Sequence record: JX128257
From: Escherichia phage ECML-4
Reading direction: 5' to 3' (one strand)
Length of the DNA stretch: 64,000 bases
Each line of letters opens with the position of its first letter. Position 1 is the stretch's first letter. Both the position numbers and the translations under genes were made by a program. Positions 3,522 through 47,332 of the stretch are shown here, piece by piece. The notes below the pieces were generated by a model. It did no database searches and was not told where the DNA came from. It was given only the letters and a program-made list of their open reading frames with translations.

Positions 3522-4075
3522 TTGGTCAGCTCCTGTTCCAGCTGATTAACAAAGGAAGAAACATAATCTGGATCGAGCACTTGGATGTTACGTTTGGCTT
3601 CGTTTTTGTTTATTGCATCATCGTGATATGTAATGCCAGTCAGTCCGTAATTCGCGATGATTGTCGCGTCGTCCATAGCGCCAAGGCCATATGCCAAACG
3701 GATAGCGCGGGGATCTGTTTCATTCCCAAATTCGTCAACGTAGTATTTTACGTCCCACATCCCATCGAGACCATAACGAGCAGTTAGCTCTTCAATGATT
3801 CTGCGTTCTGGTTTTGGCCAGTCTTCTGTGATATCCATGATACCATTGATAAGACATGGTATCCAGAACAACTCGAAGGAACCATAGACCCGTTCCGCAA
3901 AAGACCTTGGGGTTTCCCCATCGAAAACAGTATAAGGCAGGAGAAGCCCTTCTATGTCCCGAATTTTCTTAACAACCATAACCCGTCGTGTCAAGTTTTG
4001 CAACAGGACTTGGTCATTTTCTTTGACACCAATTAGTTGATGCCATACGAGTGGAAATTTCTCAAAATATTTCAT
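3518..4075 (-). CDS. hypothetical protein (virion morphogenesis cluster)
   Basis: 185 aa ORF in structural operon; no recognisable motif. Confidence 0.4.
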   Translation of the reverse strand: MKYFEKFPLVWHQLIGVKENDQVLLQNLTRRVMVVKKIRDIEGLLLPYTVFDGETPRSFAERVYGSFELFWIPCLINGIMDITEDWPKPERRIIEELTARYGLDGMWDVKYYVDEFGNETDPRAIRLAYGLGAMDDATIIANYGLTGITYHDDAINKNEAKRNIQVLDPDYVSSFVNQLEQELTK

Positions 4076-4087
4076 GGCATCTTCCCC

Positions 4088-5056
4088 TTAGAAGCTGTCG
4101 CCTTCGGTATCAAAGCGGCCTTTGTGCAACGGTTCCAGTTCAATAAATGTCATGTCAATCTGGGTTGACACGATGCTATCATCTTTGTGGACAGCATATG
4201 AAGAATCCGGCGTCTCGTTGACAAACATGTTTGACAAAACACAAGTCGATATTCGATGTAACCATTTATTGCGTTCCCCCTGCACCATGAACGTGATGTC
4301 AAATGTGGAAGGGTGTAGGTAGAATGCACTGGAATTCTTGTTGTATTTGTATTCAGGGTACATATGCATCTTGAACAGACGAATGATCTCCCTCACCATT
4401 TTCGCCTCTTTTTGAGATCGAGGGGTGAATTTAAAGGTGAATGGAATTTCGCGGTTGCGCACCCCTTGGAATATCATTTCTACATATGGGTTTGTCATTG
4501 TGCCCGTGAACAACTCTAATGTATCGTGAGCATTAATTGTTGGTAAGAACGGAATTGCTTCCGAAGCAGATTGAATCGCCTTTGTGGCAGCAAATCGCCC
4601 CATTTCTTTTCCCACGTTTAATGCATCGCCAAGTTTGAATTGGCTCATATCTTGGGCAGCGCGGGATAAGAATTGGGCACCCATACCAGCTAATCCTAAC
4701 TCAGAGCCGTTCCAACCAACGCCATAGTTGGTTGTAATAGATTCAGGCATGCATAACACTATGGACTCGTTAGAGCGGACATGACGCGCCCAAGCATATT
4801 TGCTGATAGAACCTGATTTAGAACCATAAACCACAGGAGTTTTTCCCAGTGGGTTTTGGATAGGGTTCTCAACGGTTTGAGTCGTTGTGTCGCCGTATGA
4901 CGATCCTGATATGCGGTTAATATTGAATAAAACATAATGACCGAGGGTTTTACCCCCCGTTATATCCAACGGATAGACCAATTGCTTCTGAGACTTGGCC
5001 AAGCCTTTTGTGTTCAGAACTTTGATCTTATCGATGGTCGACTTGAAATTCGCCAT
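4088..5056 (-). CDS. hypothetical virion/baseplate-associated protein
   Basis: 322 aa ORF, first gene of the minus-strand structural operon. Confidence 0.4.
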   Translation of the reverse strand: MANFKSTIDKIKVLNTKGLAKSQKQLVYPLDITGGKTLGHYVLFNINRISGSSYGDTTTQTVENPIQNPLGKTPVVYGSKSGSISKYAWARHVRSNESIVLCMPESITTNYGVGWNGSELGLAGMGAQFLSRAAQDMSQFKLGDALNVGKEMGRFAATKAIQSASEAIPFLPTINAHDTLELFTGTMTNPYVEMIFQGVRNREIPFTFKFTPRSQKEAKMVREIIRLFKMHMYPEYKYNKNSSAFYLHPSTFDITFMVQGERNKWLHRISTCVLSNMFVNETPDSSYAVHKDDSIVSTQIDMTFIELEPLHKGRFDTEGDSF

Positions 5057-7603: not shown

Positions 7604-7650
7604 TAAATTAAGGGGAAGTATACCTTCCCCTTCTTCAATAAAATAAATTA

Positions 7651-8001
7651 TTATTCAGTACAAGCTCGACCAAGTTCAGTCAGGCGGTAGAATGTTACTT
7701 CTGATTTCGGCCAATGCTTATACTCTTCAGAGTCATCATGAACCATAGTGAACGCAGGTTCGATCAGACCTTTAGATAATAATGATTGCCCTGAACGTGT
7801 ATCCCACGGATCACCTTTTACAGAACGAAACCCACCAGCAATCGGAGGGGCATGGAATGTCCATACTGTCTTGCCCTTTTCATTCGTCCAAGACTTCGGA
7901 TTGAAATACCAATGACAAAGGCGTCGATCATCATGGGTTTCAAAATTCAGCATTCCCAGAAGGACACAGAGTTGATGTCCTGTGATTCTTGGCTTTTTCA
8001 T
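7651..8001 (-). CDS. hypothetical protein
   Basis: 116 aa ORF in a chain of 4-nt overlaps. Confidence 0.4.
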   Translation of the reverse strand: MKKPRITGHQLCVLLGMLNFETHDDRRLCHWYFNPKSWTNEKGKTVWTFHAPPIAGGFRSVKGDPWDTRSGQSLLSKGLIEPAFTMVHDDSEEYKHWPKSEVTFYRLTELGRACTE

Positions 8002-42546: not shown

Positions 42547-43065
42547 TCAAATACTGGTCATATAGAGTGGGACAACCTGCTCGGCAATCAACACGACCTC
42601 AGTAATAGTGAAGTCACCGCCATAAGAGTACAGTTTGATTTGCGCCCCGTTTGTCGCCAGATTCCCATCCTTGTCAACACTGAAGAACGTAATGAAAGAC
42701 AGGGTGTCCGGCGGCGGTACGCTAGCATCACGACTTCTTGATAACTGGTTCCCAAGAGAGCCAACAAAGTCAACAATCATGGTTCTGTTTGAAGTGGATC
42801 CAGACCATGAACCGACGATATTGACCTTCACCGGAAGAATAGAATCATAAGGAAACGCGTGAAATTTGTGATCTGATAATTTAAAGAACGGAGCCAAACC
42901 AGTAGGAGAAGAAGGGTTCGGAGTCTTCCCATCCAACACAGTTAACAAATCTATTCCAGTTGCCCCAGAAGTTAGAAGTTGTGACAAACCGGAAAATCTG
43001 ACTTCTGTTTTGATGCGATGGGTCTGAAGCATATTCCCCAAATAGGGAGATATCAAAATGGCCAT
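42547..43065 (-). CDS. hypothetical protein
   Basis: 172 aa ORF. Confidence 0.4.
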   Translation of the reverse strand: MAILISPYLGNMLQTHRIKTEVRFSGLSQLLTSGATGIDLLTVLDGKTPNPSSPTGLAPFFKLSDHKFHAFPYDSILPVKVNIVGSWSGSTSNRTMIVDFVGSLGNQLSRSRDASVPPPDTLSFITFFSVDKDGNLATNGAQIKLYSYGGDFTITEVVLIAEQVVPLYMTSI

Positions 43066-43355: not shown

Positions 43356-43378
43356 AGCCCGATCGTCCTGATCGGGCT
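43356..43378 (-). terminator. terminator downstream of tRNA cluster
   Basis: AGCCCGATC-GTCCT-GATCGGGCT hairpin; minus strand followed by TTCTTTTT. Confidence 0.5.
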
Positions 43379-43599
43379 ATATTAAACCATCGTGGGGATG
43401 GAAAGACTACTCACAGCAATTTCTGATAATGGGCGTTGGGAGAGTGCGTCGGGAATCGAACCCGAAACCGTCAGGACAATGAAAAGCTATTGCATTTCAC
43501 TTTGCATATCCTCCGGCTTTCTTAACTTCCTTAACCCCAGATTGTTATGAAGTCGGCATGCACACCTTCTTCATCTTCAGGAAGTCACACTCATTGTTC

Positions 43600-43675
43600 T
43601 GGTTGCTTCAACTGGATTCGAACCAGTGACCTCTCCCTTATCAGGGGAACGCTCTACCTACTGAGCTATGAAGCA
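43600..43675 (-). tRNA. tRNA-Ile (anticodon GAT)
   Basis: hand-folded cloverleaf: acceptor TGCTTCA/TGAAGCA, D stem GCTC/GAGC, anticodon stem TTCCC/GGGAG with loop CTGATAA, T arm ACTGG-TTCGAAT-CCAGT, CCA encoded. Confidence 0.8.
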
Positions 43676-43678
43676 ATT

Positions 43679-43767
43679 TGGCGGAAGGTGAAGGATTCGA
43701 ACCTTCGGGGGCTAAAAGCCCCACTCGATTAGCAGTCGAGTCCCTTAAACCTCTCGGGCAACCTTCC
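43679..43767 (-). tRNA. tRNA-Ser (anticodon GCT), type II
   Basis: acceptor GGAAGGT/ACCTTCC, anticodon stem CTCGA/TCGAG with loop CTGCTAA, long variable arm, T arm GAAGG-TTCGAAT-CCTTC, CCA encoded. Confidence 0.8.
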
Positions 43768-44052
43768 GTATACTGCGCCTCGGTCAAGAATTTTCCAAGC
43801 CATGACCTAAATCTGGGTTCTTGACCTGACCGAGCGTAATTTGGACGGGCTTCACACCCGATTGTGCATTTGATCTGCCGTAGCCCAACTCCCCGCGCCG
43901 AAGCGCCGATTGGTTAACTGGCACCAGTGCCTTCTGGTTCGATCTCCTGTAACTTTACAGGCTTTGCGCCCGACCATTTCTGGAAGTTGAGGCATCGTTC
44001 CCGATGTGGAGTCCCCTCATTTTACACAGCTGGCTGCAACGCTTACTGTGTT

Positions 44053-44136
44053 TGGTGTGAGTGGATGGATTCGAACCACCGCGCTGTTACGGGGAGATTT
44101 ACAGTCTCCTGCATTCGACCGCTCTGCCACACTCAC
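44053..44136 (-). tRNA. tRNA-Tyr (anticodon GTA), type II
   Basis: acceptor GTGAGTG/CACTCAC, anticodon stem GGAGA/TCTCC with loop CTGTAAA, 12-nt variable region, T arm GGTGG-TTCGAAT-CCATC, CCA encoded. Confidence 0.75.
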
Positions 44137-44392
44137 ATTTGGTCTACCACCACGTGCTGGGCCACGCTCGAGGACATCGGCCATCCTTCCTCAGCTAATC
44201 CACGCGGCGGTAGATTTAGATCAGAGTGTACGGTGTAGCATTCCGCAGGGGTGCACCTACTGTAGCCCTTTCACTCTGAAATTGTATGAAGTAGGTCTCA
44301 CTCCCCTGGGTATCTGTATCCTGCAGCCTTACATTGGCAGCTATCGCGCGATTCGCACTTCCGAAGGCGCTTCGAGATACTCTACTTCAATT

Positions 44393-44468
44393 TGGCGACG
44401 ATGGCAGGACTTGAACCTGCGACATATGGATTAACAGTCCACCGTTCTACCGACTGAACTACATCGTC
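44393..44468 (-). tRNA. tRNA-Asn (anticodon GTT)
   Basis: acceptor GACGATG/CATCGTC, D stem GTTC/GAAC, anticodon stem GTGGA/TCCAT with loop CTGTTAA, T arm GCAGG-TTCAAGT-CCTGC, CCA encoded. Confidence 0.8.
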
Positions 44469-44469
44469 A

Positions 44470-44670
44470 TTATCCGTGCTTGTTTGCTTCAATTGCCCTT
44501 AATTGAGCATCAGCGTCAGCTTTGGTGTCATGTGTCCCAAGAACCTTCGTCTTGGTGTGGTCAAGGACAACCCACTTGTCGCCTCGCTTTTCAACAAACT
44601 CAACAATCTCTTTGTTGTCGGTAGCGAGGCCATCCCACTCAGCAAGAAACTCACCGAACGTTTTCATCAT
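44470..44670 (-). CDS. small hypothetical protein embedded in tRNA cluster (66 aa)
   Basis: track ORF begins with TTG; more likely start is the ATG-ATG pair at 44670 preceded by GGTGAG. Confidence 0.35.
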   Translation of the reverse strand: MMKTFGEFLAEWDGLATDNKEIVEFVEKRGDKWVVLDHTKTKVLGTHDTKADADAQLRAIEANKHG

Positions 44671-44787
44671 ACTCACCAATTGTTTATTGAACAACTGGTT
44701 TATTTAGGTGCTCCCGAGGCGGTATTTTAATCCCGCGATCCCATCTCGCCTGCCGTAGACCAGAGCATGCTGACAGTCCAACATATT

Positions 44788-44863
44788 TGGTGACCCTGGC
44801 TGGACTTGAACCAGCGACCAATCGATTATGAGTCGACTGCTCTAACCACTGAGCTACGGGGCC
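44788..44863 (-). tRNA. tRNA-Met (anticodon CAT)
   Basis: acceptor GGCCCCG/CAGGGTC (one C-A mismatch), D stem GCTC/GAGC, anticodon stem GTCGA/TCGAT with loop CTCATAA, T arm GCTGG-TTCAAGT-CCAGC, CCA encoded. Confidence 0.7.
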
Positions 44864-44971
44864 AAAATTGGCGGGGTCTGAGGCTTTTCACCTCACCTGC
44901 TGGATTGGCCTCCAGCTGTTCTCTCTGGGGACTCGCTGTCCGGACAGCTATCCCTTAAACTATCGCCCCTT

Positions 44972-45086
44972 AATTCATATTGCTGTGGGTAATACCAAAG
45001 CGGAGGTTTGGAATCTCTCGCCCTATAGCGACCTTTAAACCGTTTGATCAGTCCGATCCAAAGGACTACCCACAGCAATATGAATT
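44972..45086. repeat. 20-bp perfect inverted repeat flanking a 75-nt loop
   Basis: AATTCATATTGCTGTGGGTA (44972-44991) and its exact reverse complement (45067-45086); a 14-bp palindrome GCTGTCCGGACAGC lies just upstream (44935-44948). Confidence 0.8.
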
Positions 45087-45293
45087 TGTTGTGTCCAATC
45101 AAGGACTGTCAACCTTTTATCCCGTTTGTGCATGATCAGTTCATGCAGGCCTCTTTGTGCGCCTCACGGCAACGCGCTTCTGTAGGTCATTGACTTGCAC
45201 CGTAGTCTCACCACAGGCGTTTATTTTTCCAGGGCTTTCCACTTACAAGTCTTAACCAGATCGGGATACGGGCTTGTAAGATCAGATTGGACA

Positions 45294-45371
45294 CAACTTT
45301 GATGGCTCTAGGACTAAAGATCCCGCGTCACCCATAGACTTGGTTTATAAAATCTAGAGCCATCAAAGTTG
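45294..45371. repeat. 18-bp perfect inverted repeat flanking a 42-nt loop
   Basis: CAACTTTGATGGCTCTAG (45294-45311) and CTAGAGCCATCAAAGTTG (45354-45371); an 8-bp hairpin CTTACAAG/CTTGTAAG lies upstream (45242-45280). Confidence 0.8.
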
Positions 45372-45750
45372 CAACCAATGTCGCAACTCGCACTTCAGCG
45401 TCTTCGTCTCGCTTCAGCACTTGTCCTCTACGCTCGGACCAAACGAGGCTGGCCGACAGAAACATGACACCACTCATCACTAGAGCGAGGATGTGGTTGA
45501 TAGCCACGATGCTATATCTCTGTCGCAGAGTGATCACACTTGTCAGGATGATCACTGTTTTGCGAACTTGAAAATACTGCGCCTGTCTCGGGTTTCCCCT
45601 TAGTTCGGCCTCTCATTGTTCGTCTAGTCAGGGAGCTACCCTTGATGACCAGCTTATTTTGAGATCTTCGCCAGCACCCACTAGTGTCTAGAATATGTAG
45701 GTGTCGAGGTCTGCAAGGCATTGCCCTATTTCATACAACGCTCTCTCAAG

Positions 45751-45888
45751 TACGCAAATCGAAGTTCTCTGGGCTTAACAGGTTCGACCCAACATGTTGT
45801 ATATCGCCTAACTTGCTCATGGGACGGACACATCTGTGTACAGACCTTGAGGGTTAAAAGATATACCCAGAGAACTTCGATTTGCGTA
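45751..45888. repeat. 23-bp perfect inverted repeat flanking a 92-nt loop
   Basis: TACGCAAATCGAAGTTCTCTGGG (45751-45773) and CCCAGAGAACTTCGATTTGCGTA (45866-45888); loop contains a T-loop-like GGTTCGACC. Confidence 0.8.
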
Positions 45889-46477
45889 GCCCTTCACTTG
45901 CCAAAGATCAGGGCTAATAACAAGACTTCGCTCACATCTTTGAGGGCACTCAGTGTACAACAGGCTCCGATATTTCATAGGGCATTACTGCCTCGGATTT
46001 AAGTTGCCTTTCTCCTGAAACTCCATGCAGTCTCGCGTCTGACGCGGAATGCCCTCAAAGATGTGGAGCCGTTTTAGGGAGTCGAACCCAAATGCTTGGC
46101 CAGCGCTGACCTTACATCCCATCTGACTTAGGCAACCCACCTCTGCTTACTCAGGAGCTTATCCCCTTTGGACAGTCAGATATAACGGCTTTGGGATTGG
46201 AGGAAGGACTCGAACCTTCTCATGTACGCTCCTGATTTCTCAGAAGTAGCCTGCTCCCATCGACCTATTAAGTACACGCTCCGCTCATTGTTCGGCGGGA
46301 GCTTATTAATCACACCCTCCCGCCTATTGTTAGTGCGCCGAATTTTGTTATGAGGAATCGGAAGACCTCACTGGTGTATGGCTATTAAGCTACTGCCAGG
46401 AACGTGTTATCATTAGCGATTATTTTTGTGGTCAGTTTCTAAAAACCCGCAAAGTCACGCACAACGAAAACGAAAAC

Positions 46478-46542
46478 CTGTTTGAGTCCTAAACCTACCT
46501 GTCTTGGTCTCACATCGCTATGAGTGGCCAGGACTCAAACAG
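46478..46542. repeat. 13-bp perfect inverted repeat flanking a 39-nt loop
   Basis: CTGTTTGAGTCCT (46478-46490) and AGGACTCAAACAG (46530-46542). Confidence 0.7.
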
Positions 46543-46617
46543 CTTGCCGTTCAGTGAGTTAACTATACTTTGTAACCCGTTATTGATAAAACCTTTTATT
46601 TTTGTTGACGAGGGTGT

Positions 46618-46718
46618 GGAATCGAACCACACTTCTGAGCGCTGCCCCGTGTCACCAATGCACCACCTCACCATCGATTTGCCGGAACTTACGCATCCGG
46701 CCTCGTCCTGTCGGTGTT
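46618..46718 (-). ncRNA. tRNA-like element (perfect 7-bp acceptor stem plus canonical T-arm, non-canonical 101-nt body)
   Basis: GACGAGG (46618-46624) pairs perfectly with CCTCGTC (46712-46718); T-arm-like GTGTGG-AATCGAA-CCACAC at 46625-46643; no standard anticodon arm could be folded. Confidence 0.3.
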
Positions 46719-47332
46719 CTTCTGAATCCGGGAAGATCAGCAGGAACTATGAATCAAGTTAATTCAACCAACAGGAATCCTCGTGTTGCCCTTTGACGCA
46801 ACATTATGAACCCTCTATGAAGACTCATAATGTTGTCGGCGTGATGGAGATTAGCGCCCCCGACCTCCCCTTATATGTTGGTGTCGACTTGCCAACAGGG
46901 TGCTCTCTGATTCTGAGCTAATCACGCTACAACAGGGAGTTTCGTTCTCCGACGGTCAAGTGCGTCCACTGACACCAGCGAGGTGGATATTATGCCTCTA
47001 TTCACACAAGCCCCAGAGACTAGGGGTTCACTGTTTTCGGTTTCAAGCCTACTCACACTGTGCTGTTTCCCTCATGTTTGATACTTTACTGCAAGCCAGC
47101 CAATTTGAAAAATCCTCTCCCCTTTGAATTACACTGCCCACAGCAGTGCGGACGAACCTTCATTCAAAACCGGATGCGCCGAAATGGGCGACTGTGTACC
47201 GGACTGATCAGGTCGACCCAGGAGAGAGCAGGTAATCCCGATCAGGAGGATGAGGAGTAACATCATGTAAAACATAGTGTTCCCTCCCTTCCATGCAACT
47301 AACTTTACCGCATTTATTTATTGAATAAAGCG

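Follow-up and report, generated by a model that had tools for sequence, protein, structure and literature searches.

The locus

The region considered here lies in a 64,000-nucleotide (nt) stretch of DNA from Escherichia phage ECML-4 (sequence record JX128257), which was analysed as a whole and is called the window below. It carries five transfer RNA (tRNA) genes on the minus strand and, 1.4 kb upstream of this cluster, an element that resembles transfer-messenger RNA (tmRNA). Sequence relatives of the region are Salmonella phage STML-13-1 (99.2% identity) as well as Vi01, CBA120-like phages, and other members of Kuttervirus (Ackermannviridae; 92-97% identity). The initial annotation had placed five minus-strand tRNAs between 43600 and 44863, and ARAGORN recovered all five at these coordinates and no others in the window. 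The same five genes were retrieved with the Rfam model RF00005 (56-77 bits compared with a gathering score of 29), and CCA is encoded in each of them. The cluster is the 3' end of an approximately 4-kb island of RNA genes on the minus strand (43356-47332). Between 43308 and 47333, open reading frames (ORFs) of at least 100 amino acids (aa) are absent besides two plus-strand ORFs antisense to the tRNAs. The central features are listed by window coordinates and strand.

43600-43675, minus: tRNA-Ile(GAT; GAU); ARAGORN, Rfam 72.7 bits, CCA encoded
43679-43767, minus: tRNA-Ser(GCT; GCU); ARAGORN, Rfam 56 bits, CCA encoded; 3 nt upstream of tRNA-Ile
44053-44136, minus: tRNA-Tyr(GTA; GUA); ARAGORN, Rfam; cassette between ACCAAA repeats
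44393-44468, minus: tRNA-Asn(GTT; GUU); ARAGORN, Rfam 77 bits, CCA encoded
44788-44863, minus: CAU tRNA, labelled Met(CAT) by ARAGORN and most likely tRNA-Ile2; ARAGORN, Rfam, similarity to E. coli tRNA-Ile
44864-47332, minus: tract of 2.47 kb without a credible protein gene; ORF substitution tests; 75-98% conserved across Ackermannviridae genera
46292-46479, minus: tmRNA-like element (mRNA-like domain and two pseudoknots, no tRNA-like domain); BLAST, nhmmer, Rfam, covariation

Taken as a whole, we consider it likely that the locus is a known tRNA cluster at the 3' end of a modular RNA island, one module of which is derived from tmRNA.

Anatomy of the tmRNA-like element

When the tract upstream of the tRNAs was compared by BLAST, approximately 100-140 nt (46331-46471) matched unrelated phages at 74-80% identity. 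Near the core of this element Rfam returned tmRNA families only, always at the mRNA-like domain. A profile of the element family also aligned to E. coli ssrA at the mRNA-like domain only, in register from the upstream motif to the stop codon (E 0.004 in a 1.1-kb search). The parts of the element and its 5' flank are as follows.

46385-46417, minus: tag frame GCT AAT GAT AAC ACG TTC CTG GCA GTA GCT TAA (ANDNTFLAVA, then stop)
46399-46396/46374-46371, minus: helix resembling helix 5 (H5) of tmRNA
46370-46366/46355-46351, minus: second hairpin
46361-46358 with 46341-46338, minus: pseudoknot A; three covarying pair types
46337-46332/46316-46311, minus: further helix
46324-46317 with 46301-46294, minus: pseudoknot B; five complementary arm types
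46469-46551, minus: 5' hairpin X1 (I7) with 22-nt arms, leading into the element
46562-46589, minus: candidate sigma-70-like promoter TTATCA-16-TATAGT (9/12), upstream of hairpin X1

On the tRNA strand of the window, the tag frame is preceded by ...CCACAAAAATAATC and followed by TAG..., and the corresponding part of E. coli tmRNA reads ...CCGCAAAAAATAGTC GCA AAC GAC GAA AAC TAC GCT TTA GCA GCT TAA TAA... The phage tag ANDNTFLAVA equals ANDENYALAA in length (10 codons). The resume context is ...AAAAATAATC GCT AAT... in the window and AAAGATAAAT GCA AAC GAT in the family consensus, where AAAGATAAAT agrees with the Rfam tmRNA consensus UAAAUGCaAACGAu. The tags of 72 distinct family members are ANEEMYLAVA, ANDEQFLAVA, ANDNTFLAVA, ANDDQFLAVA, ANDNVFLAVA, ANDNAYLAVA, ANDDVVLMAA, ANDSEVLMAA, and close variants. 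Their variation shows 16 extra states at third codon positions compared with 6 and 6 at the other two, and synonymous and non-synonymous codon differences number 234/434 in the tag frame compared with 13/715 and 135/578 in the other frames. Alternative frames were considered as well and are not conserved. Conventional translation of the tag was rejected because no in-frame ATG, GTG, or TTG lies between an in-frame TAG, eight codons upstream, and the resume codon.

The stop codon of the tag is located in the loop of the helix-5-like hairpin, which is directly followed by the second hairpin. The helices of the element are 97-100% paired and carry compensatory changes; in pseudoknot A, for example, CCGA faces TCGG in 53 sequences, CCAA faces TTGG in 10, and CCAG faces CTGG in 9. 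Overall, 95.7% of the alignment cells are paired (approximately 40% with slid partners), and 110 double-sided changes were counted compared with 30.7 in shuffles, none of the 500 shuffles reaching as high a value. As judged from sequence and covariation, the element derives from tmRNA, of which it has retained the resume context, a 10-codon tag that looks translated, helix 5, and two pseudoknots, and it is probably new as a variant of tmRNA. A remnant of an ssrA integration site was considered as an alternative origin and rejected: the piece is internal and not the 3' end, strictly lytic phages carry it, and there is no blastn similarity to E. coli ssrA.

In other lineages, near-consensus sigma-70 promoters that are clearer than the candidate in the window lie directly upstream of the conserved 5' end of the element (AGTTTTCG), namely TTGACA-17-TATAGT in Felixounavirus and TTGACA-17-TAGATT in siphoviruses.

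Distribution among phages and prophages

A search for the element matched 637 of 50,697 phage records (Ackermannviridae, Felixounavirus, and siphoviruses), and an nhmmer profile identified 95 full-length copies in the loci that were fetched for comparison (numbered with L below). None of the listed phage records annotates it as an RNA; it is either unannotated or covered by a hypothetical-protein call. In Felixounavirus the element sits inside tRNA clusters and in the same orientation as the tRNAs. It is also present in siphoviruses of 45-58 kb that infect Klebsiella, Salmonella, Enterobacter, Cronobacter, and Vibrio; in the one record whose gene table was inspected, the gene for the major tail protein begins shortly downstream of it. 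Of 5,426 E. coli genomes, 137 have lambdoid prophages with the element, which is oriented in the sense of the late operon and located between tR' and the holin gene. A pattern scan of genome contigs gave 120 chance matches, none of which was confirmed by nhmmer, and is uninformative on bacterial distribution.

The element is a conserved derivative of tmRNA that escapes standard finders. If functional, it would tie phage infection to ribosome rescue in phages of E. coli, Salmonella, and Klebsiella, among them several with uses in biocontrol and therapy, and it would allow the roles of individual tmRNA parts to be tested in a natural setting.

Search for a tRNA-like domain and possible roles of the element

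A tRNA-like domain (acceptor stem with G3:U70, T arm, ACCA) was sought with ARAGORN at default and relaxed settings, with Rfam at E values up to 10, by duplex prediction with the neighbouring units, by inspection of the flanks, and by a scripted downstream scan for acceptor, T-arm, and CCA features. No consistent tRNA-like partner came out of ARAGORN, Rfam, the downstream scan, or duplex prediction. The Rfam tmRNA alignments cover only model positions of approximately 56-294, short of the tRNA-like ends. At the place of the tRNA-like domain in the permuted-tmRNA model, the window has a hairpin with a 39-nt loop instead of approximately 92 nt.

In every lineage examined, the element is trailed within 30-300 nt by a tRNA or tRNA-like unit, the type of which varies by lineage. 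The unit found in Kuttervirus is called unit A.

46190-46260, minus: unit A, tRNA-like, 71 nt; acceptor ATGGGAG/CTCCAAT (G3:A70) with C and CCA, perfect T arm

Unit A has no anticodon arm, and in its predicted fold a 7-bp GAAA-capped helix replaces both the D and anticodon arms; Rfam scores it as tRNA-Sec with 17 bits. In most Felixounavirus genomes the unit measures 82 nt and has G3:U70, A73, and CCA. Lambdoid and siphovirus genomes have a scaffold RNA here (unit T), the insert of which is hypervariable.

This arrangement brings to mind a split tmRNA similar to the two-piece type, with the element as the coding piece and the downstream unit (unit A, the 82-nt unit, or unit T) as the acceptor piece. 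The idea draws on the recurrence of a trailing unit in every lineage, on the G3:U70, A73, and CCA of the Felixounavirus unit, and on the fold of unit A, which like the tRNA-like domain of tmRNA has no anticodon arm. Some 3:70 mispairs, G:A included, are reported to support alanine acceptance. However, the partner varies by lineage and most versions are without G3:U70, unit A is absent from several Kuttervirus genomes that retain the element, intermolecular pairing is not significant (z about 0), and a coding piece that comes first is the reverse of the known permuted tmRNA gene order. A split tmRNA is regarded as unlikely.

The element could also act as a decoy, an unchargeable copy of the message and pseudoknot portion of tmRNA that soaks up ribosomal protein S1, SmpB, and RNase R and thereby damps or redirects the ribosome rescue of the host. 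A decoy would fit the failure of every test to find a tRNA-like domain. There is also a precedent of the opposite kind, as mycobacteriophage DS6A carries a tmRNA that consists of the tRNA-like domain only and whose expression in E. coli leads to inhibition of tmRNA (PMC4131195, PMC11915505). Yet a decoy needs no conservation of the tag at the amino-acid level, and the variation found is frame-specific and biased toward third positions. Moreover, the two most divergent versions of the element rewrite helix 5 yet keep a tag-like ending (LAVA to LMAA). We consider a decoy doubtful; amino-acid conservation of the tag is the reason why a role as tag template is favoured over a pure decoy.

The tag-template reading is that the element, carried by hundreds of enterobacterial phages and prophages, represents a hitherto unrecognised class of viral tmRNA derivatives that stand alone as message and pseudoknots without a tRNA-like domain, whose tag, (A)ANDxxxLAVA, is translated, so that the phage takes over trans-translation. 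We put it forward as a tentative possibility. Under it, the element would feed an alternative tag template into trans-translation during infection, with a putative partner supplying the alanyl-tRNA-like function; this is the view that we adopt, if only weakly. If the tag is translated, the fate of proteins from stalled ribosomes would be altered via a new split tmRNA or some other way of loading a tag template. Several points weigh against a tmRNA-based function. The Rfam tmRNA scores (10.5-27.6 bits) stay below the gathering scores of 47-84. Neither the window nor 16 other loci received a tmRNA call from ARAGORN, G3:U70 is absent from the neighbouring tRNA-like units except the 82-nt unit of Felixounavirus, and the element is predicted to pair with its neighbours no better than shuffled sequences do. 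Since there is no chargeable tRNA-like domain, trans-translation on the element is left unexplained.

The downstream units of other lineages have features of their own. The Felixounavirus 82-nt gene directly follows the element (L105 2116-2194, L196 ~7635-7716, and L159) and has the acceptor CGGGGCG/CGCCTCG and an anticodon-like loop CTTCTAA but no D arm; it receives no ARAGORN call and 31.7 bits from the Rfam tRNA model. VpaE1-type genomes have a normal tRNA-Arg(TCT) in its place. Unit T constitutes a second unannotated RNA family, located 80-300 nt downstream of the element, with 23 of 24 matches on the same strand. It was found in an E. coli lambdoid prophage (L084 4251-4345) and in L160, L029, L176, L091, L132, L092, L100, L018, L104, L149, L158, and L184, and not in the window. 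Its conserved tRNA-shaped scaffold, TGTGGTG-AA-TGCGCAGGCTGATGCGC ... GCCGGAG(A/T)TCAGC(G/A)CCGGC-CACCACA, carries an insert of approximately 25-95 nt that replaces the anticodon arm and differs in every locus. In L084, the element is additionally flanked by long hairpins (3907-3985 and 4147-4250; GGTAAGAGCA...loop...TGCTCTTTCC, extended by CACAAC/GTTGTG), and other loci of prophages and siphoviruses have such hairpins in the corresponding positions. The hairpin stems show covariation from locus to locus (e.g., GGTAATGGCAC/GTGCCATTATC and GATAATTGCA/TGCAATTATC), and their loops of 40-75 nt are all different, the one in L084 holding a T-arm-like hairpin.

The five tRNA genes

The spacers of 250-320 bp that had been described between the tRNAs exist in three of four cases (285, 256, and 319 nt), but the gap between tRNA-Ile and tRNA-Ser is 3 nt. 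The identity of the tRNA at 44788-44863 also needs correction: Met is very probably wrong, although ARAGORN agrees with it, because the body of the molecule is tRNA-Ile-like. Over all 76 nt, it is 92-93% identical to E. coli chromosomal tRNA-Ile of the ileX/ileY type, counterparts that occur in each of the 5,426 complete E. coli genomes and carry a tRNA-Ile annotation (5,425 genomes); ileZ of Stx phages is 83.5% identical. In ileX/ileY-type tRNAs, the CAU anticodon is converted to lysidine and decodes AUA. The acceptor-stem pairs C4-G69 and C5-G68 are determinants used by TilS, and both can be read from the acceptor sequence of the phage gene (GGCCCCG...CAGGGTC). Because of the similarity to tRNA-Ile and the enrichment of ATA codons with ATG unchanged (see below), the gene is most likely a tRNA-Ile2, a lysidine-bearing AUA reader, and not a tRNA-Met. 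The label should read Ile2 in many other deposited Kuttervirus annotations as well, to which this error is common.

The tRNA cluster itself is already known and typical of Kuttervirus (Vi01-like) phages, since the annotated records of relatives and published Kuttervirus genomes list tRNAs here. The published sets comprise Asn, Met, Ser, and Tyr with a variable Gln, Pro, Val, or Ile (PMC9409062, Table 5). Beyond the change from Met to Ile2, the cluster alone therefore offers little that is new.

The operon also includes a protein gene.

44470-44670, minus: 66-aa protein gene; phrog_3684, purifying selection, only in some relatives

This ORF, which had been noticed between the Asn and Met-labelled tRNAs, stops 1 nt short of tRNA-Asn. 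Its product matches phrog_3684 (E 3e-26), a family of unknown function, and has a weak similarity to DUF2188. It occurs in six of 13 related genomes with 69-100% identity. Given that its substitutions fall on the three codon positions as 17/5/94 and no frameshifts are found, the ORF is a genuine accessory gene of the tRNA operon and under purifying selection.

Codon usage and counter-defence

For the codon comparison, 54 long phage ORFs were set against 37 E. coli genes that served as a proxy for the host. ATA is the most over-used common codon (10.4 per 1000 in the phage, 2.0 in the E. coli sample; 5.1x), which makes sense only if the CAT tRNA is Ile2 and not Met. Tyr codons are enriched 1.44x (TAT 1.8x) and Asn codons 1.32x (AAT 1.7x), ATT and ATC are marginal (1.04-1.11x), ATG is at 1.0x, and the AGY codons read by Ser(GCU) are at 0.9x. 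The proposal that the tRNAs match codon usage thus stands for Ile2, Tyr, and Asn, but fails for Ser(GCU) and is marginal only for Ile(GAU). That codon usage leaves these last two unexplained, and that the comparison used genes of E. coli and not of Salmonella, both speak against the decoding-based account. The tRNAs would mainly top up the decoding of the over-used AUA, UAU, and AAU codons and may also buffer against defences that deplete tRNAs.

With regard to such defences, it had been suggested that phage copies replace tRNAs cut by anticodon nucleases, which by analogy is plausible. Tyr and Asn tRNAs, members of the queuosine family, are targets of colicin E5. The phage genes Tyr(GUA) and Asn(GUU) are the same isoacceptors as known nuclease targets (for PtuAB, see PMC11555353). 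The T5 tRNA-Tyr acts against retron-Eco7 PtuAB (PMC11555353), tRNA-Lys is a further precedent against PrrC and PARIS (PMC11555353, PMC11464382), and anticodon-loop variants of tRNAs are a published counter-defence concept (PMC10264068). In 5,426 E. coli genomes, blastn detected no relative of the phage tRNA-Tyr, and the best full-length match of tRNA-Asn (78.9%) is to tRNA-Asn genes on plasmids of approximately 100 kb. The anticodon loops are CUGUAAA in tRNA-Tyr and CUGUUAA in tRNA-Asn, which we take to be the canonical loops of the E. coli host. There is consequently no sign of evasion by loop mutation, and simple replenishment is possible.

A stronger version holds that counter-defence is the main role, with Tyr and Asn tRNAs replacing host tRNAs cut by colicin E5-like or PtuAB-like nucleases and codon matching being secondary. 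Besides the precedents, it can appeal to the strong divergence of both phage tRNAs from the host genes and to the fact that the tRNA sets of relatives, though variable, share Met(CAU), Asn, Tyr, and Ser as a recurrent core. It has to contend with anticodon loops that are the same as the presumed host loops, with the absence of tRNA-Tyr from several relatives, and with codon usage, which already accounts for AUA, Tyr, and Asn. We see in it a conceivable but speculative option.

The RNA island around the cluster

The island in which the tRNAs and the tmRNA-like element are embedded is composed of tRNA-like remnants, long hairpins, and cassette-like tRNA units. Its remaining features are listed below.

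43356-43378, minus: strong intrinsic terminator closing the island; 9-bp stem with 6 GC pairs, then TCTTTTTGTC
43438-43592, minus: tRNA-like remnant, 155 nt, downstream of tRNA-Ile; minimum free energy (MFE) fold, z only -1.0
43768-44052, minus: structured Ser-Tyr spacer; MFE -98.3 kcal/mol, z -2.76 compared with shuffles
44139-44214, minus: 14-bp helix, of which the outer 7 bp and ACCA resemble a tRNA acceptor end; fold
44972-45086, minus: long hairpin I6; 20-nt perfect arms, 75-nt interior; RNase III-type stem length
45286-45379, minus: long hairpin I2; 26-nt arms, 88% complementary
45751-45888, minus: long hairpin I1; 23-nt perfect arms, 92-nt interior
45933-46065, minus: long hairpin I4; 24-nt arms, 88% complementary
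46063-46189, minus: unit B, tRNA-like; acceptor GCCGTTA/AAACGGC with T and CCA, T arm GGGTTCGACTCCC, insertion of approximately 50 nt
46607-46677, minus: pseudo-tRNA; relaxed ARAGORN 'Pro ggg', perfect T arm GTGTGG TTCGATT CCACAC, no CCA

All 13 related genomes have a tract of 2.5-5.0 kb at the position of the island. The tract is conserved at 92-98% within Kuttervirus and at 75-92% in other genera, in which the flanking 189-aa protein is only 63-68% identical. Protein-coding explanations for 44864-47332 were rejected, as six or more candidate ORFs have no third-position bias and most contain frameshifts or stops in relatives; three control genes behaved differently in the same substitution test. 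A phrog_23307 match at 45328-45555 and a 48-aa ORF at 47129-47275 were discarded on the same grounds. The latter (MFYMMLLLILLIGITCSLLG..., minus strand) has a strong Shine-Dalgarno-like GGGAGGG and lies just downstream of the gene for the 189-aa protein. Its substitutions relative to relatives are distributed as 3/21/9 over codon positions 1/2/3, which does not fit the frame and may reflect another frame or a constraint at the RNA level.

Five long hairpins (X1 and the four listed above; arms of 20-26 nt) lie on the tRNA strand of the island, together with four extra perfect or near-perfect T-arm motifs (GGTTCGAnTCC), which are rarely expected by chance; relaxed ARAGORN adds two weak tRNA calls. 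Unit B, recovered with relaxed ARAGORN, is 96-99% conserved across Ackermannviridae and in its canonical register (acceptor AAACGGC, T, and CCA) has no G3:U70. At its 3' end, this unit (GGGTTCGACTCCC..CGGCTCCAC) is similar to the 3' terminus of E. coli tmRNA (GGGTTCAACTCCCGCCAGCTCCACCA), and 13 nt match the tmRNA T-loop in Rfam. The remnant at 43592-43438 combines a 7-bp acceptor-like stem (GAGTGTG/CGCACTC), two inserted hairpins, and a perfect T arm (TCGGG TTCGATT CCCGA, 43465-43449) without CCA. Relatives retain the Ser-Tyr spacer as a conserved module, which in part matches a T5-like phage. The helix at 44214-44139 adjoins tRNA-Tyr and provides the upstream ACCAAA repeat of the Tyr cassette. 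The suggestion in the initial annotation that the spacers hold further RNAs is thus borne out for tRNA-derived remnants (e.g., 44214-44139 and 43592-43438), but the substantial RNA, the tmRNA-like element, lies outside the cluster, 1.4 kb upstream.

We infer that the island would be read from upstream promoters, such as the candidate at 46589-46562, to the terminator at 43378-43356, which sits just upstream of the ribosome-binding site of the next gene. Host tRNA-processing enzymes would then cut the transcript into its units, and the hairpins of approximately 20 bp probably draw RNase III too. Covariation tests on the spacers and long hairpins have low power within Ackermannviridae, where the sequences are too similar. 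The T4-type late promoter motif TATAAATA has a single match in the window (2.0 expected by chance), which falls outside the island and is uninformative. Some Kuttervirus records start inside the tract and list a 'repeat_region', but a terminal repeat was rejected as an explanation because this entry denotes the annotation of a 21-nt repeat and not genome ends.

Modularity and cassette turnover

The 13 related genomes have between one and seven tRNAs each, drawn from Met/Ile2, Asn, Tyr, Ser, Ile, Trp, Gln, Arg, and Ser-UGA, and the island region aligns between genomes as a mosaic of blocks. For tRNA-Tyr, the filled site reads ...GGTAGACCAAAt[tRNA...CACTCACACCA]AACACAG and the empty site, found in five genomes, ...GGTAGACCAAACACAG. 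The flanks are joined where the gene is absent (e.g., L003/L004/L010/L015), and in L007 the same tRNA-Tyr has been relocated behind a different unit that also ends in ...ACCAAAC. From these exact junctions at ACCAAA, it follows that the units end in ACCA-AA and that recombination between the short repeats adds or removes whole tRNAs. The unit ends also explain why the spacers resemble the 3' ends of tRNAs. Gain and loss bounded by ACCAAA provides a concrete mechanism for the turnover of phage tRNA repertoires. The pseudo-tRNA at 46677-46607 likewise behaves as a variable cassette: it has been deleted from L009, and L003/L008 carry a replacement. Unit A is missing from some relatives.

These observations may also be read as decay, in which the island, including the element, consists mostly of degenerating tRNA and tmRNA copies that are kept only as spacers and processing signals for the five working tRNAs. 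Many units clearly are degenerate tRNAs, the content of the tract differs between close relatives through gain and loss of cassettes, and covariation in the hairpins is weak. But unrelated phage families and prophages alike retain the whole length of the element, its tag frame intact and its helices marked by compensatory changes, some of them give it a promoter of its own, and parts of the tract are at least 90% identical between genera in which the flanking protein is only 63-68% identical. We judge decay to be very unlikely and prefer to see in the island a set of modules that includes a tmRNA-derived one. A 2.5-kb tract that is treated as empty or as hypothetical proteins in hundreds of phage genomes consists of RNA modules moving between unrelated phages.

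Further observations concern the exchange of blocks. An HNH homing endonuclease gene is inserted in the tract equivalent to 44864-47332 in the close relatives Mutine (MG428992) and FrontPhageNews (MW021754), which suggests a further source of block-wise variation. Short modules of the island (window 45083-45171, 45236-45283, 43923-43994, 44225-44284, and 44333-44364) match unrelated tRNA-rich or large phages, namely T5-like SenALZ1 (90%), Klebsiella phage KP13-26 (94%), T5-like EP_H11 (82%), Salmonella phage 3-29 (82%), and a Pantoea phage (32/32 nt), all at places that are unannotated or labelled hypothetical. An 89-nt 'tRNA-??? / tRNA-Undet' follows tRNA-Ser in L009 (7499-7587), L015 (7499-7587), and phage Hercules (L002 1601-1689), where it occupies the place of the tRNA-Ile(GAT) of the window. 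In L009, this tRNA has the 30-nt module CAGGAGAGCTTCGGAAGAACAAGGTGCCTG instead of an anticodon arm, a module that also forms the insert of unit T in an E. coli prophage. The gene that comes next downstream of the island encodes a 172-aa 'tail needle knob' protein (42547-43065, minus strand). Its homologues (L016-L081) are 39-53% identical and come from many prophage-like contigs, mostly of 5-50 kb. In L018 and L029, the tmRNA-like element lies 2-3 kb upstream of the tail needle knob gene on the same strand, so the linkage of an RNA array with this tail gene recurs outside Ackermannviridae.

Comparison with known systems

Vi01-like (Kuttervirus) clusters occupy the same site between the baseplate and tail modules and have the same core tRNA set as the one described here. 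Their records label the CAU tRNA inconsistently as Met or Ile, whereas it is read here as Ile2, and in the examined records the upstream 2.5-kb tract is given as 'none' or as short hypothetical proteins, never as RNA. In the lambdoid prophages, the copies of the element between tR' and the lysis genes take the slot of ileZ-argN-argO (Stx and other lambdoid phages, downstream of Q/PR') and are sometimes accompanied by CAU, Arg(UCU), and Ser(GCU) tRNAs; the set as described comes without a tmRNA-like element or neighbouring scaffold RNAs. The tRNA region of T4 resembles the island in being a phage tRNA operon that also gives extra small stable RNAs. There, eight tRNAs and the stable 'species 1 and 2' RNAs are released by tRNA-processing enzymes. 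To our knowledge, these extra RNAs are not tmRNA-like.

With E. coli tmRNA (ssrA, RF00023), the element shares an A-rich upstream context followed by a GCN resume codon, a 10-codon tag that opens with A-N-D and ends in small hydrophobic residues, and a stop codon in the loop of a helix-5-like hairpin that is followed by H-type pseudoknots. Unlike bacterial tmRNA, it has no acceptor stem, T arm, CCA, or G3:U70, its tag ends in AVA or MAA instead of LAA, and, compared with E. coli tmRNA, it contains only two pseudoknots in approximately 190 nt instead of 363 nt. Its best Rfam matches are the two-piece tmRNAs of alpha- and beta-proteobacteria and cyanobacteria (RF01849-51, RF04321), in which the coding RNA likewise finishes soon after the tag and pseudoknot(s). 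In two-piece tmRNA genes, an acceptor piece (T arm, 3' acceptor strand, and CCA) lies upstream of the coding piece. None is present at the element: hairpin X1 on its upstream side shows no T arm, relatives can do without the pseudo-tRNA at 46677-46607, and no significant duplex with the neighbouring units was found.

In the accessible literature, no description of a tmRNA-like RNA was found for Ackermannviridae, Felixounavirus, or the late regions of lambdoid phages, although an earlier description is possible; the Ackermannviridae papers found mention tmRNA only within the citation of ARAGORN. The phage tmRNAs in databases in 2014 were limited to mycobacteriophages, Bacillus phage G, and DS6A, and by 2025 the databases held 79 sequences, obtained with tools that require a tRNA-like domain (PMC4131195, PMC11915505). 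Like the tmRNAs of mycobacteriophage cluster C (e.g., Bxz1), Bacillus phage G, and DS6A, the element is a phage-borne tmRNA derivative, and DS6A demonstrates that a phage can keep a partial tmRNA (PMC4131195, PMC11915505). While the known phage tmRNAs are either complete or the tRNA-like half, the element corresponds to the complementary half, message and pseudoknots, in phages and prophages of enterobacteria.

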